DNA from: a virus
Lineage: Duplodnaviria; Heunggongvirae; Uroviricota; Caudoviricetes
Length of the DNA: 8,388 nucleotides
Virus record (IMG/VR): IMGVR_UViG_3300028952_000009
Reading direction: 5' to 3' (one strand)
Shown here in pieces: positions 2,280 to 7,854 of the stretch. How positions within the stretch are numbered: the first letter of the stretch is position 1; every line of letters starts with the position of its first letter. A program made the translations under genes and the position numbers. A model generated the notes under the pieces. That model had not been told where the DNA came from, searched no databases, and saw only the letters and a program-made list of their open reading frames with translations.

Positions 2280-2776
2280 TGCCTCCATCATTACGAAAAG
2301 CCGTTGCTGCTGCTATTGGTGGCGGAGCAATTGCTATAGCATCAGTGTTAATCACTGGCCCAAGTGGTAACGATGGTCTGGAAGGTGTCAGCTACATACC
2401 ATACAAAGATATTGTTGGTGTATGGGCTGTATGTCACGGGCATACAGGAAAAGACATCATGCTCGGTAAAACGTATACCAAAGCAGAATGCAAAGCCCTC
2501 CTGAATAAAGACCTTGCCACGGTCGCCAGACAAATTAACCCGTACATAAAAGTTGATATACCGGAAACAACGCGCGGCGCTCTTTACTCGTTCGTTTACA
2601 ACGTGGGCGCTGGCAATTTCAGAACATCGACGCTTCTTCGCAAAATAAACCAGGGCGATATCAAAGGCGCATGTGATCAGCTACGTCGCTGGACATATGC
2701 TGGCGGTAAGCAATGGAAAGGTCTCATGACTCGTCGTGAGATTGAGCGTGAAATCTGTTTGTGGGGTCAGCAATGA
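2279..2776 (+). CDS. rrrD: SAR (signal-anchor-release) endolysin, T4-lysozyme-like muramidase, phage 21 R-type, 165 aa
   Basis: Start ATG overlaps the holin stop (TAATG at 2277-2281). N-terminal weakly hydrophobic Gly/Ala-rich SAR domain [20 protein letters not shown]. Glu35 (2381-2383) and Asp44 (2408-2410) are at T4L-like spacing. Residue 50 is Ala (gct, 2426-2428); see findings. Confidence 0.9.
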
Positions 2777-3234
2777 ACAGAGTAACCGCGATTATCTCCG
2801 CTCTGGTTATCTGCATCATCGTCTGCCTGTCATGGGCTGTTAATCATTACCGTGATAACGCCATTACCTACAAAGCCCAGCGCGACAAAAATGCCAGAGA
2901 ACTGAAGCTGGCGAACGCGGCAATTACTGACATGCAGATGCGCCAGCGTGATGTTGCTGCACTGGATGAAAAATACACGAAGGAGTTAGCTAATGCGAAA
3001 GCTGAAAATGATGCTCTGCGTGATGATGTTGCCGCTGGTCGTCGTCGGTTGCACATCAAAGCAGTCTGTCAGTCAGTGCGTGAAGCCACCACCGCCTCCG
3101 GCGTGGATAATGCAGCCTCCCCCCGACTGGCAGACACCGCTGAACGGGATTATTTCACCCTCAGAGAGAGGCTGATCACTATGCAAAAACAACTGGAAGG
3201 AACCCAGAAGTATATTAATGAGCAGTGCAGATAG
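2773..3234 (+). CDS. rzpD: Rz i-spanin (inner-membrane spanin subunit), 153 aa
   Basis: ATG at 2773-2775 overlaps the endolysin stop TGA at 2774-2776 (ATGA). N-terminal [23 protein letters not shown], then a coiled-coil-rich periplasmic domain. The track calls a GTG at 2761, which I reject because it lies inside the endolysin and the ATG gives the canonical overlap. Near-identical to recalled lambda Rz. Confidence 0.9.
2993..3175 (+). CDS. rzoD: Rz1 o-spanin lipoprotein, embedded in the +1 frame of Rz, 60 aa
   Basis: ATG at 2993 with AGGAG (2981-2985) 7 nt upstream. Lipoprotein signal [20 protein letters not shown] with lipobox VVG-C20; mature part is proline-rich (PPPPP). Lies wholly inside the Rz ORF in another frame. 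Confidence 0.85.
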
Positions 3235-3265: not shown

Positions 3266-3559
3266 TTATTGTGAGCAATACACACGCGCTTCCAGCGGAG
3301 TATAAATGCCTAAAGTAATAAAACCGAGCAATCCATTTACGAATGTTTGCTGGGTTTCTGTTTTAACAACATTTTCTGCGCCGCCACAAATTTTGGCTGC
3401 ATCAACAGTTTTCTCCTGTCCAATTCCCGAAACGAAGAAGTGATGGGTGATGGTTTCCTTTGGTGTTACTGCTGTCGGTTTGTTTCCAACAGTAAACGTC
3501 TGTTGAGCACATCCTGTAATAAGCATTGCCAGAGCGGCAGAAAACAACATTTTTTTCAT
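3266..3559 (-). CDS. borD: Bor lipoprotein (lambda bor family, serum-resistance-associated outer membrane lipoprotein), 97 aa
   Basis: Minus-strand ATG at 3557-3559 with AGGA about 7 nt upstream (complement of 3566-3569). Lipoprotein signal MKKMLFSAALAMLITGC (lipobox ITG-C). The track ORF extends to 3607, but the upstream Mets lack a signal-peptide context. Convergent with Rz, as in lambda. Confidence 0.9.
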   Translation of the reverse strand: MKKMLFSAALAMLITGCAQQTFTVGNKPTAVTPKETITHHFFVSGIGQEKTVDAAKICGGAENVVKTETQQTFVNGLLGFITLGIYTPLEARVYCSQ

Positions 3560-3919
3560 CTTATTATCCTGCATTGTTAAAAACGGCAGAATCCTATGTG
3601 ACAACAATTAAACGATAGTTAAATGGATTGATGAAAATTAAAACTATATAGGTGGATGCTCAGCCTATTGGAGGAGGGGGGGCACTCAGAATCCTGTGGA
3701 ATGAAATAAACCGCTCTTTCTGTCCATTACCCTTTTAGCTGCGCTGTATCGTCGCCGTATTCCCGCATTAACCATGACCGTAGCCCGACGGGGAATTCCT
3801 TCTGCGTGAGTGTGCGGGAATAATCAAAAACGATGCACACCGGGTTTTACTGTGCTGACAGACGCAGGGTTACCCTCATAGTCGCTTTTCCGGTGCGATG
3901 GTGGAAGAAACCGGGATGT

Positions 3920-4114
3920 TTATTCATCATCACTCTGGATTGATGTATATGCTCTCTTTTCTGACGTTAGTCTCCGACGGCAGGCTTCAATGACCCAGGC
4001 TGAGAAATTCCCAGACCCTTTTTGCTCAAGAGCGATGTTAATTTGTTCAATCATTTGGTTAGGAAAGCGGATGTTGCGGGTTGTTGTTCTGCGGGTTCTG
4101 TTCTTAGTTGACAT
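3920..4114 (-). CDS. ylcI: Small YlcI/YnfO-family (DUF3950) protein, 64 aa; predicted ribbon-helix-helix-like DNA-binding fold
   Basis: Full ORF from the track. Basic N-terminus (KNRTRRTTTRNIRF) followed by a strand-helix-G-x-S-helix pattern (NIRFPNQMIEQINIALEQKGSGNFSAWVIEACRRRL) typical of RHH proteins. Position immediately upstream of cos matches ylcI in DLP12 and an equivalent small ORF at the right end of lambda, by recollection. The RHH assignment is inference from sequence pattern. Confidence 0.75.
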   Translation of the reverse strand: MSTKNRTRRTTTRNIRFPNQMIEQINIALEQKGSGNFSAWVIEACRRRLTSEKRAYTSIQSDDE

Positions 4115-4313: not shown

Positions 4314-4325
4314 GGGCGGCGACCT
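4314..4325. other. cosN: lambda-type cohesive-end site (12-nt GGGCGGCGACCT); cosQ-like sequence lies about 20-35 bp upstream (about 4280-4296)
   Basis: The sequence ACAGGTTACG|GGGCGGCGACCT|CGCGGGTTTTCGC at 4304-4338 matches the recalled junction of the lambda right and left ends around its 12-nt cohesive end. 4170-4313 resembles the recalled lambda right-end sequence. Confidence 0.8.
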
Positions 4326-4352: not shown

Positions 4353-4478
4353 TTCCGGTTTAAGGCATTTCCGTTCTTCTTCGTCGTAACTTAATGTTTT
4401 TATTTAAAATACCCCCTGAAAAGAAAGGAAACGACAGGTGCTGAAAACGAGCTTTTGGGCCTCTGTCGTTTCCTTTCT
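4353..4478. promoter_or_regulatory. cosB: terminase small-subunit (Nu1) binding sites R3, R2, R1, with an AT-rich IHF-type site between R3 and R2
   Basis: R1 CTGTCGTTTCCTTTCT (4463-4478) and its exact inverted copy AGAAAGGAAACGACAG (4423-4438, R2) are seen directly. A degenerate R3-like AAGGCATTTCCGTTCT is at 4353-4368. The AT-rich stretch 4381-4420 is a plausible IHF site. Spacing to cosN and to the Nu1 start (4503) matches the lambda layout. Confidence 0.65.
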
Positions 4479-4502
4479 CTGTTTTTGGCCGTGGAATGAA
4501 CA

Positions 4503-5078
4503 ATGGAAGTCAACAAAAAGCAGCTGGCTGACATTTTCGGTGCGAGTATCCGTACCATTCAGAACTGGCAGGAACAGGGAATGCCCGTTCTGCGAGGCGG
4601 TGGCAAGGGTAATGAGGTGCTTTATGACTCTGCCGCCGTTATAAGATGGTATGCCGAAAGGGATGCTGAAATTGAGAACGAAAAGCTGCGCCGGGAAGTT
4701 GAAGAACTGCGGCAGGCCAGCGAGACAGATCTCCAGCCAGGGACTATTGAGTACGAACGCCATCGACTTACGCGTGCGCAGGCCGACGCACAGGAGCTGA
4801 AAAATGCCAGAGACTCCGCTGAAGTGGTGGAAACCGCATTCTGTACTTTCGTGCTGTCGCGGATCGCAGGTGAAATTGCCAGTATTCTCGACGGGATCCC
4901 CCTGTCGGTGCAGCGGCGTTTTCCGGAACTGGAAAACCGACATGTTGATTTCCTGAAACGGGATATCATCAAAGCCATGAACAAAGCAGCCGCGCTGGAT
5001 GAACTGATACCCGAACACGGCACTGGTCGGCGTGCAGGTGGACTCGGAGCAGTTCGGCAGCCAGCAGGTGAGCCGTAA
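4503..5078 (+). CDS. nohD: Terminase small subunit Nu1 homolog, C-terminally truncated by a deletion: about 170 Nu1-like residues, then a 21-residue out-of-frame tail read from J-derived DNA
   Basis: ATG at 4503. [54 protein letters not shown]... is the Nu1 winged-HTH DNA-binding N-terminus. Nu1 similarity runs to ...[10 protein letters not shown] (through about 5011); the rest ([21 protein letters not shown]) is unrelated. The gpA-interacting extreme C-terminus is therefore lost. Confidence 0.88.
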
Positions 5079-7854
5079 TTATCATCTTCGCGGGCGCATT
5101 CTGCAGGTGCCGTCGAACTATAACCCGCAGACGCGGCAATACAGCGGTATCTGGGACGGAACGTTTAAGCCGGCATACAGCAACAACCCGGCCTGGTGTC
5201 TGTGGGATATGCTGACCCACCCGCGCTACGGCATGGGGAAACGTCTTGGTGCGGCGGATGTGGATAAATGGGCGCTGTATGTCATCGGCCAGTACTGCGA
5301 CCAGTCAGTGCCGGACGGTTTTGGCGGCACGGAGCCGCGCATCACCTGTAATGCCTACCTGACCACGCAGCGTAAGGCGTGGGATGTGCTCAGTGATTTC
5401 TGCTCGGCGATGCGCTGTATGCCGGTATGGAACGGGCAGACGCTGACGTTCGTGCAGGACCGACCATCAGATAAGGTGTGGACCTATAACCGCAGTAATG
5501 TGGTGATGCCGGATGATGGCGCGCCGTTCCGCTACAGCTTCAGCGCCCTGAAGGACCGCCATAATGCCGTTGAGGTGAACTGGATTGACCCGAATAACGG
5601 CTGGGAGACGGCGACAGAGCTTGTTGAAGATACGCAGGCCATTCTCCGTTACGGTCGTAACGTCACGAAGATGGATGCCTTTGGCTGTACCAGCCGGGGG
5701 CAGGCACACCGCGCCGGGCTGTGGCTGATTAAAACGGAGCTGCTGGAAACGCAGACCGTGGACTTCAGCGTGGGTGCCGAAGGGCTTCGCCATGTACCGG
5801 GCGATGTCATTGAAATCTGCGATGATGACTATGCCGGTATCCGCACCGGCGGGCGCGTGCTGGCGGTAAACAGCCAGACCCGGACGCTGACGCTCGACCG
5901 TGAAATCACGCTGCCATCTTCCGGCACCACGCTGATAAGCCTGGTTGACGGGCAGGGGAGTCCGGTCAGCGTGGAGGTTCAGTCCGTCACCGACGGCGTG
6001 AAGGTGAAAGTGAGCCGTGTTCCTGACGGCGTTGCTGAATACAGCGTATGGGGGCTGAAGCTGCCGACGTTGCGCCAGCGCCTGTTCCGCTGCGTGAGTA
6101 TCCGTGAGAACGACGACGGCACGTATGCCATCACCGCCGTGCAGCATGTACCGGAAAAAGAGGCCATCGTGGATAACGGGGCGCACTTTGACGGCGACCA
6201 GAGCGGCACGGTAAATGGTGTCACGCCGCCAGCGGTGCAGCACCTGACCGCAGAAGTCACCGCAGACAGCGGGGAATACCAGGTGCTGGCCCGCTGGGAT
6301 ACGCCGAAGGTGGTGAAGGGCGTGAGCTTCCTGCTTCGCCTGACCGTGGCAGCGGATGACGGCCGTGAGCGACTGGTCAGCACGGCCCGGACGACGGAAA
6401 CCACTTACCGCTTCACACAACTGGCTCTGGGGAACTACAGGCTGACAGTCCGGGCAGTAAATGCGTGGGGGCAGCAGGGCGAGCCGGCGTCGGTATCGTT
6501 CCGGATTGCCGCACCGGCAGCGCCGTCGCAGATTGAGCTGACACCGGGGTATTTTCAGATAACCGCCACGCCGCATCTTGCGGTTTATGATCCGACGGTA
6601 CAGTTTGAGTTCTGGTTCTCGGAAAAGCGGATTGCGGATATCAGGCAGGTTGAAACCACAGCACGCTATCTTGGCACGGCGCTGTACTGGATAGCCGCCA
6701 GTATCAATATCAAACCGGGCCATGATTATTATTTTTACATCCGCAGTGTGAACACCGTTGGCAAATCGGCATTCGTGGAGGCTGTTGGCCAGCCGAGTGA
6801 TGATGCATCCGGCTATCTGAATTTTTTCAAAGGAGAGATAGGGAAAACCCATCTGGCTCAGGAGTTGTGGACGCAGATTGATAACGGTCAGCTTGCGCCT
6901 GACCTGGCGGAAATCAGAACGTCCATCACGGATGTCAGTAATGAAATCACGCAGACCGTCAATAAGAAACTGGAAGACCAGAGTGCGGCAATCCAGCAGA
7001 TACAGAAGGTTCAGGTTGATACAAATAATAACCTGAACAGCATGTGGGCTGTGAAGCTGCAGCAGATGCAGGACGGACGCCTTTATATCGCGGGTATTGG
7101 TGCCGGTATTGAGAATACCCCTGACGGTATGCAGAGTCAGGTGCTGCTGGCGGCGGACAGGATTGCGATGATTAATCCTGCGAATGGCAACACAAAGCCG
7201 ATGTTTGTTGGTCAGGGCGATCAGATATTCATGAACGAAGTGTTCCTGAAATATCTGACGGCTCCCACCATTACCAGCGGCGGTAATCCTCCGGCATTTT
7301 CCCTGACACCGGACGGGCGGCTGACGGCGAAAAATGCCGATATTAGCGGTAACGTGAATGCGAACTCCGGGACGCTCAACAACGTCACGATTAACGAGAA
7401 CTGCCGGGTTCTGGGAAAACTGTCCGCGAACCAGATTGAAGGCGATCTCGTTAAAACAGTGGGCAAAGCTTTCCCCCGGGACTCCCGTGCACCGGAGCGG
7501 TGGCCATCAGGGACCATTACCGTCAGGGTTTATGACGATCAGCCGTTTGACCGGCAAATTGTTATTCCGGCGGTGGCATTCAGTGGCGCTAAACATGAGC
7601 AAGATCATACTGATATCTACTCCTCATGCCGTCTGATAGTACGAAAAAACGGTGCTGAAATTTATAACCGAACGGCTCTGGATAATACGCTGATATATAC
7701 GGGTGTTATTGATATGCCTGCAGGCAGTGGTGTAATGACACTGGAATTTTCTGTATCGGCATGGCTGGTAAATGGCTGGTATCCCACAGCAAGTATCAGC
7801 GATTTGCTGGTTGTGGTGATGAAGAAAGCCACTGCAGGCATCATGATTAGCTGA
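5008..7854 (+). pseudogene. J: 5'-truncated tail-tip / host-specificity protein J (central fibre); about 948 codons open and in frame, but no native start or promoter
   Basis: From 5008 ([51 protein letters not shown]...) the frame matches recalled lambda J from roughly residue 185 onward and stays open to the stop at 7852-7854. A TGA at 5005-5007 sits just upstream in this frame. The track's 5032 start is a GTG inside J with no SD. The frame is +1 relative to Nu1, so no fusion protein is made. Confidence 0.85.

Follow-up and report, generated by a model that had tools for sequence, protein, structure and literature searches.

A short inverted repeat between bor and ylcI in lambdoid prophage DNA raises the question of whether it belongs to a functional structure and, if so, whether that structure acts as RNA or as DNA. 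The repeat lies in an 8,388-nt stretch of caudoviricete DNA (IMG/VR record IMGVR_UViG_3300028952_000009; the whole stretch is hereafter called the window), where an initial annotation had proposed a conserved structured RNA or a cruciform. Comparison of homologs established that the repeat is one helix, designated P1b, of a multi-helix conserved non-coding element of ~175 nt on the + strand (3740-3916). It is probably the central helix of a structured + strand RNA domain, which would act in cis within the late polycistronic mRNA.

The inverted repeat and the element around it

The repeat search confirmed that TATTCCCGCA (3758-3767) is the exact reverse complement of TGCGGGAATA (3813-3822). The arms are 10 nt long, 100% complementary and 45 nt apart, and one additional U·G lengthens the helix to 11 pairs (3758-3768 with 3812-3822). 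At the homologous positions the lambda record NC_001416 reads TATTCCCGGA and TCCGGGAATA (L001 622-631 and 677-686); the C-G to G-C swap between lambda and the window, which the initial annotation had proposed, is therefore real. It is a true compensatory change, one of many across lineages, and its use as covariation evidence is supported. The palindrome GGAATTCC, also noted between the arms, is present at 3792-3799 but not conserved, with GGAACTCC, GGAGACTCC and other sequences in homologs. Because homologs do not keep it, the palindrome was judged incidental and rejected as a functional feature.

According to the RNAalifold consensus of 59 distinct homologs, the + strand folds into helices P1a and P1b, an apical helix and hairpin P3. 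In P1, helices of 8 and 11 bp are separated by an asymmetric internal loop of 5/7 nt. In the 8-bp helix, P1a, TGTATCGT (3745-3752) pairs with ACGATGCA (3830-3837), the latter within the most conserved stretch, AATAATCAAAAACGATGCACAC. P1b comprises TATTCCCGCAT (3758-3768) and GTGCGGGAATA (3812-3822), that is, the two arms of the repeat plus the U·G pair. Above it, CGTAGC (3779-3784, with A3782 unpaired) and GCGTG (3804-3808) form the apical helix. P3 (3888-3916) has the stem TTCCGGT (3888-3894)/ACCGGGA (3910-3916) and a 15-nt loop with a conserved GGAAGAA; GGA motifs are present both in this loop and at the P1 apex. Per-type folds and a structure-aware alignment added the two-tier hairpin P2 (3842-3875), with an outer stem GGG (3842-3844)/CCC (3873-3875) and an inner stem CTGTG (3850-3854)/CGCAG (3863-3867). 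Each lineage forms a two-tier P2 between P1 and P3 in these folds, with differing inner stems: CCGCG/CGCGG, CUGUG/CGCAG (window), CAGCU/GGCUG (Salmonella phage S137) and CGGCGA/UCGCUG (L286).

The motif (G)TCGC(C) occurs twice unpaired, at 3750-3756 on the 5' side of the P1 internal loop and at 3881-3886 in the P2-P3 linker, and both places are conserved in most homologs. Such a pair of motifs could form a two-part protein binding site.

Compensatory changes were counted per sequence in three alignments: A3 (59 distinct homologs) and A4 (131 sequences), both made with plain MAFFT, and A5 (105 distinct homologs), aligned to covariance model R1. This model, of about 195 positions and 39 pairs, was built for realignment because the P2 columns were misaligned in the MAFFT alignment; being fitted to it, A5 leans towards the structure. 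On the window, R1 scored 202.6 bits on the + strand only, spanning 3738-3929. In A3, 98.2% of cells were paired and 10 pairs had changed on both sides, compared with 4.0 ± 1.2 in shuffles (0/500 reaching the observed count) and 0-5 in slid controls. The corresponding values were 95.9% and 14 pairs in A4 (shuffles 8.7 ± 1.3, 0/500; slid controls 3-7) and 96.2% and 19 of 39 pairs in A5 (shuffles 11.6 ± 1.5, 0/500; slid controls 3-12). Double-changed cells numbered 138 versus 34 in shuffles for A4, and 163 versus 39 for A5.

The changes were spread over four helices. In P1b, both sides had changed while still pairing at 6 of the 11 pairs (A4), with an estimated ~7-8 independent double substitutions. 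The apical helix had one or two double-changed pairs and 97-98% of its cells paired. P2 showed changes on both sides in four of five inner and two of three outer pairs (A5), and P3 in six of seven pairs (A4), for example CCGGT/ACCGG, CCTGT/ACAGG, TCGAT/ATCGA and CTCAGA/TCTGAG. As an independence test, viral contigs were scanned with flank-only patterns in which one left-arm position had to differ from the consensus; contigs picked on the left arm alone returned right arms with the matching changes. P1b arm pairs of other lineages include TATTTCCGCA/TGCGGAAATA, CACCTCCACA/TGTGGAGGTA, TATCATCGCA/TGCAATGATA in Salmonella phage S137, and the perfect pair TATCTCCACA/TGTGGAGATA, which carries three double changes relative to the window.

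Wobble pairs and consensus energy favour a + strand RNA. Single-sided changes gave 288 G·U cells on the + strand versus 9 in which the - strand alone would form G·U (C·A on +), a count biased by the structure having been predicted on the + strand; within the strand-neutral repeat alone, the ratio was ~36 to 4 in favour of +. The consensus fold reached -27.6 kcal/mol on the + strand and -12.3 kcal/mol on the - strand, where P1b was lost. Across ten diverse homologs the mean P1 folding z-score was ~-2.3 on + and ~-1.1 on -. With regard to the initial choice between a structured RNA and a cruciform, these values favour the RNA, while the strand asymmetry speaks against a symmetric cruciform. The + strand carries holin, lysozyme and Rz and runs antisense to bor; since the lysis genes lie on it, it also corresponds to the late transcript.

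Distribution and position of the element

A BLAST search of phage records with 3560-3960 as query found the conserved block in 440 records. In most of them homology began sharply at ~3737-3740 and ended at ~3848 or ~3914, with 75-88% identity inside these edges and differing flanks outside. Carriers include lambda (about 46865-47040 in lambda coordinates), 434, Stx1/Stx2-converting phages, K-12 DLP12 and some Salmonella phages, among which S137 and SPN3UB hold a diverged copy. The block is present in 4579 of 5426 complete E. coli genomes (~84%), at 11,833 places and in up to 11 copies per genome. K-12 has a single copy, in DLP12 between borD and ybcV. The lambda, 933W and K-12 DLP12 records carry no annotation under the match, which lies between Rz/bor and cos.

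Plasmids hold 695 copies, adjoining the bor homolog iss. The copy upstream of iss on plasmid NZ_CP010141 (L125 2501-2604) is truncated and decayed: its left arm has an inserted C, its right arm is altered, and insertion sequences cut it off after the P1 domain. On ColV-type plasmids, iss is accompanied by Rz/Rz1 remnants and a truncated copy of the element.

In a scan of one genome per species, true copies were confined to Escherichia. Matches outside this genus were almost all lambda DNA contamination and were set aside, as they added no diversity. They lay in assemblies of Pseudomonas, Cohnella, Brevibacillus, Flavobacterium, Shewanella and others (L126-L170), on contigs of ~3.55 kb or ~48.5 kb corresponding to the lambda right end. 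Such lambda-identical contigs in unrelated taxa almost certainly represent control DNA from sequencing that remained in public genomes.

The position of the element is fixed relative to the modules on either side. Among ~94 viral contigs, wherever the two genes were detected, Rz lay upstream and Nu1 downstream, all on the same strand. Only a subset of these contigs had bor between Rz and the element; the placement as a bor-ylcI intergenic feature, as first described, is thus not specific, and the element follows Rz both where bor is present and where it is missing. About 10 nt separate the Rz stop codon from the element in L005, L043, L061 and Stx1_14744. In L056, L088, L020 and L103 Nu1 starts ~310 nt past P3, which therefore places cos ~120 nt downstream of it. 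The minimal order is Rz stop, ~10 nt, element, ~120 nt, cos and then Nu1, and accessory genes (bor, ybcV, ybcW, ylcI and other open reading frames) are inserted on either side of the element.

The window itself is a DLP12-like defective lambdoid prophage, with a right end 99% identical to that of phage ev207. Pfam matches identified a porin (393-1475, -), holin (2019-2279, +), lysozyme (2279-2776, +), Rz (2761-3234, +), Bor (3266-3559, -), DUF3950 or YlcI (3920-4114, -), Nu1 (4503-5078) and, at 5032-7854, the C-terminal portion of tail tip protein J rather than terminase A. The porin gene precedes holin on the - strand, as nmpC does in DLP12. The C-terminus of Nu1 is aberrant and the joint with J lies at ~5032-5078; because the C-terminal part of J follows this aberrant Nu1, the region from A to J has been lost and the prophage is defective. 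The cosN cohesive-end sequence GGGCGGCGACCT (4314-4325) is located 400 bp downstream of the element, compared with an element-cos distance of 1.5 kb in lambda.

Two further repeats were observed downstream of the element. A perfect 16-bp inverted repeat, AGAAAGGAAACGACAG (4422-4437)/CTGTCGTTTCCTTTCT (4463-4478), lies between cosN and the Nu1 start; it appears to correspond to lambda cosB sequence in which R sites, bound by gpNu1, flank a GC hairpin resembling a terminator. The direct repeat TGCGGGTT (4075-4082 and 4090-4097, 15 nt apart) falls within ylcI, at the 5' end of that oppositely oriented gene, in a region that is G/U-rich on + and CA-rich on - and that gave the only + strand terminator-like match there.

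Candidate roles and rival explanations

Rfam 15 gave no match at E ≤ 10 on 3700-3950, and scans of the whole window and of the lambda, 933W, S137, 4A7 and Stx1 loci left the element without a match; the sole match in the window, to mir-578 at 4419-4481 (E = 0.8, over the 16-bp repeat), was spurious. Literature on prophage small RNAs, on lambda late-RNA processing and on fragments of the element sequence yielded no description of this locus, in agreement with the initial suspicion that no function had been described. No tRNA was found in the element. Its homologs share no open reading frame, those of the window, 4A7 and lambda being different; substitutions lack 3-base periodicity (entropy by codon phase 0.29/0.19/0.27) and 1-nt indels occur. 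A 36-aa + strand frame (3833-3943) and the - strand frame annotated in phage 4A7 were both rejected, as neither is conserved.

Signals of transcription and DNA processing were likewise not found. No σ70 promoter-like site lies within P1 or P3. The element contains a single σ70-like match (3855-3882, +, 9 of 12), a weak one, and the total for the region equals shuffle expectation, on which grounds an own promoter was rejected; the 5' flanks, where a promoter might be located, differ between lineages. No intrinsic terminator was detected in 3740-3916 on either strand: GGGTTTT(T) at 3842-3848 lies 4-7 nt from any stem and no consistent U tract follows P3 with its 15-nt loop. A terminator was therefore rejected for want of a hairpin with an adjoining U tract, and a cos site (cosQ/cosN/cosB) was rejected given the location of cosN. 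Inspection by eye across lineages revealed no conserved integration host factor site, RfaH ops, boxA or σ54/σE/σ32 promoter; also by eye, neither the Chi-like octamers of the P3 loop (933W has GGTGGTGG) nor an alternative AAAAAC/GUUUUU hairpin proved conserved.

The explanation that we consider probable is a conserved structured RNA domain acting in cis. It would be carried on the Q-dependent late transcript from PR' and would sit at the junction of the lysis and cos-packaging modules of lambda-like phages; we infer action within the late polycistronic RNA because the element comes first after Rz and has neither promoter nor terminator of its own. P1 might serve as an endonuclease processing signal and/or a 3'-end stabilising signal, like the RNase III sites between T7 genes, and processing there would let the lysis-gene message and the head/tail message decay independently. 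This mechanism, proposed by analogy, is the most speculative step and is put forward as a possibility that may well prove wrong. Only tentatively can the element be described as an uncatalogued cis-acting RNA family of the late operon, present in lambda and most E. coli lambdoid prophages, with a sequence-dependent task at the lysis/packaging boundary. Candidate tasks would be a processing or stability switch setting the ratio or timing of lysis versus head/tail gene expression, or a platform binding a protein, of phage or host origin, with an effect on the late transcription or translation complex.

Several observations weigh against a structured cis-acting RNA. Thermodynamic support is modest, with a folding z-score of ~-0.7 for the whole element and -1.4 for the 81-nt hairpin of the repeat. 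P1a never varies and, being almost invariant, neither supports nor contradicts pairing. Unpaired stretches are conserved as much as stems, a pattern that protein or DNA recognition could explain, as could homogenisation through recombination. The very common variant TATTCCCTCA/TGCGGGGATA has U·C at P1b pair 8, 933W has a G·G mismatch at pair 9, and L008-type copies carry two mismatches in P1b; P1b can therefore dispense with perfect pairing. Most of the sequences come from Escherichia prophages related by descent and recombination, and the counts are per sequence, not per evolutionary event. The evidence for processing or stabilisation consists of hairpin geometry and position, and the RNA, its strand and any cleavage are likewise what we infer.

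Some of these points would also fit a chance repeat in recently shared sequence, with no function of its own. Perfect 10-bp inverted repeats with a loop of ≤60 nt occurred at 0.46 per dinucleotide-shuffled window, with at least one in 30% of shuffles, and the actual window has three. Because such repeats are not rare by shuffling and the hairpin z-score is only -1.4, the case for the repeat rests on the comparison of homologs. The homologs are closely related and some copies are mismatched, but arms that vary independently of each other were found only in a minority (933W, the U·C pair-8 variant and the decayed plasmid copy near iss). Distinct double substitutions arose in at least four lineages at six P1b pairs, P2 and P3 covary in parallel, and all covariation measures exceeded the shuffle and slid controls, so that chance is extremely improbable. 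A - strand RNA, either a leader or regulatory structure of bor (or iss) or the 3' end of lysogen ylcI/ybcV transcripts, would agree with the location of the element 110-290 bp upstream of the bor start on that strand in the window, lambda and 933W, with its transfer together with iss onto ColV-type plasmids, and with lambda P1, which folds as well on - (z = -4.1). Many phages, however, have the element without bor, ybcV or ylcI, the wobbles turn into C·A, the - strand consensus fold loses the helix of the repeat, and the plasmid copy is truncated and decayed; we regard this explanation as highly improbable.

Recombination would provide another source of conservation without RNA function. The element could be a homology patch (linker) for lambdoid module exchange, or a single-stranded DNA hairpin or cruciform, e.g., a priming or recombination signal. 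Mosaic breakpoints fall at its edges and in its middle. The 933W copy (L002 1502-1696) is identical to lambda up to the P1 loop and to the L050 type from the right arm on; on its sequence it is probably a recombinant, and its G·G mismatch arises because the junction, between the arms, lies inside the element. Six contigs (L010, L200, L202, L207, L208 and L227) hold two full copies 0.95-1.8 kb apart that flank inserted + strand open reading frames, which suggests that recombination at the element brings in accessory genes. In L010 the copies (5055-5249 and 6005-6199) bracket a + strand frame of ~198 aa that matches nothing in Pfam, with a DUF4406 gene ahead of the first copy. A homology patch leaves unexplained both the compensatory changes in four helices and the strong G·U strand asymmetry, and we consider a DNA-level explanation rather improbable, although RNA and DNA roles could coexist. 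A trans-acting small RNA, self-transcribed or cut from the Rz 3' untranslated region of the late transcript, would act by base pairing to host or phage targets or would sequester a protein, for instance CsrA or Hfq. Many small RNAs are known from fixed positions in lambdoid prophages (PMC4104026; bioRxiv 10.64898/2026.05.13.724894), and the element is compact and multi-hairpin, with conserved loops. Against this stand the weak sole σ70-like match, promoter-capable flanks that vary by lineage, the lack of a hairpin followed by a U tract on either strand (scan and reading), a length of ~175 nt that far exceeds that of AgvB/AsxR, and Rfam models of known prophage small RNAs that do not match. Such a role is unlikely.

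If real, the cis-acting RNA domain would be a new component in the control of the 26-kb late transcript, about whose post-transcriptional handling little is known. This would be relevant to Shiga-toxin phages, where the fate of the late transcript determines toxin release. For annotators, model R1 provides a means of marking the lysis-packaging junction of lambdoid prophages.

Comparison with known systems

Parallels to the element include T7 RNase III hairpins such as R1.1 and lambda sib downstream of int, in which the hairpin, after cleavage, sets the stability of the neighbouring message. Like the predicted RNA domain, these are structured hairpins in phage polycistronic transcripts between functional gene blocks. 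In them an internal loop separates two helical segments, and P1 (8 bp, 5/7-nt loop, 11 bp) fits the RNase III-type geometry of about two coaxial helix turns with an internal loop, which alone is not diagnostic. In contrast, there is no sequence relationship to R1.1 or sib; the element adds P2, P3 and long conserved unpaired stretches, and its P1 apex is branched or irregular instead of a simple loop.

Prophage small RNAs (the anti-sRNAs AgvB/AsxR, StxS, Pas, svsR and DicF) resemble the element in being non-coding, located at conserved lambdoid positions and widespread in E. coli. Unlike it, these RNAs are short, with promoters and terminators of their own. AgvB/AsxR and most Pas RNAs lie 3' of PR' between Q and holin, and svsR at the 3' end of cI, whereas the element is downstream of Rz. 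AgvB and AsxR occupy an accessory-gene insertion site 3' of PR', measure 51-60 nt and share a conserved 3' 42 nt (PMC4104026); the corresponding models, RF02702 and RF02703, do not match the element, which argues against membership in that family.

HK022 put RNAs and Bacillus EAR are cis-acting multi-hairpin RNAs that make RNA polymerase read through terminators. They share with the element multi-hairpin domains in long phage or operon transcripts, but no match to it in sequence or structure was found, no search aimed at one having been made. The put RNAs differ in lying just after early promoters and in HK022-type phages only, and lambda-type late transcription already uses the protein Q. REP/BIME and ERIC/IRU are likewise imperfect palindromes in transcribed intergenic DNA with several copies per genome, but they are scattered among unrelated operons, whereas the element occupies one fixed place after the lysis cassette. 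Its copy number tracks prophage number, and a dispersed repeat of REP/ERIC type or a miniature inverted-repeat transposable element was rejected in view of the Rz-element-Nu1 same-strand order in all examined loci with Rz or Nu1 detectable. Set beside these systems, the element seems to represent a new family within a familiar class, that of structured intergenic RNAs in phage operons, and is distinguished by its occurrence in lambda itself, the best-studied temperate phage, and in most E. coli genomes.
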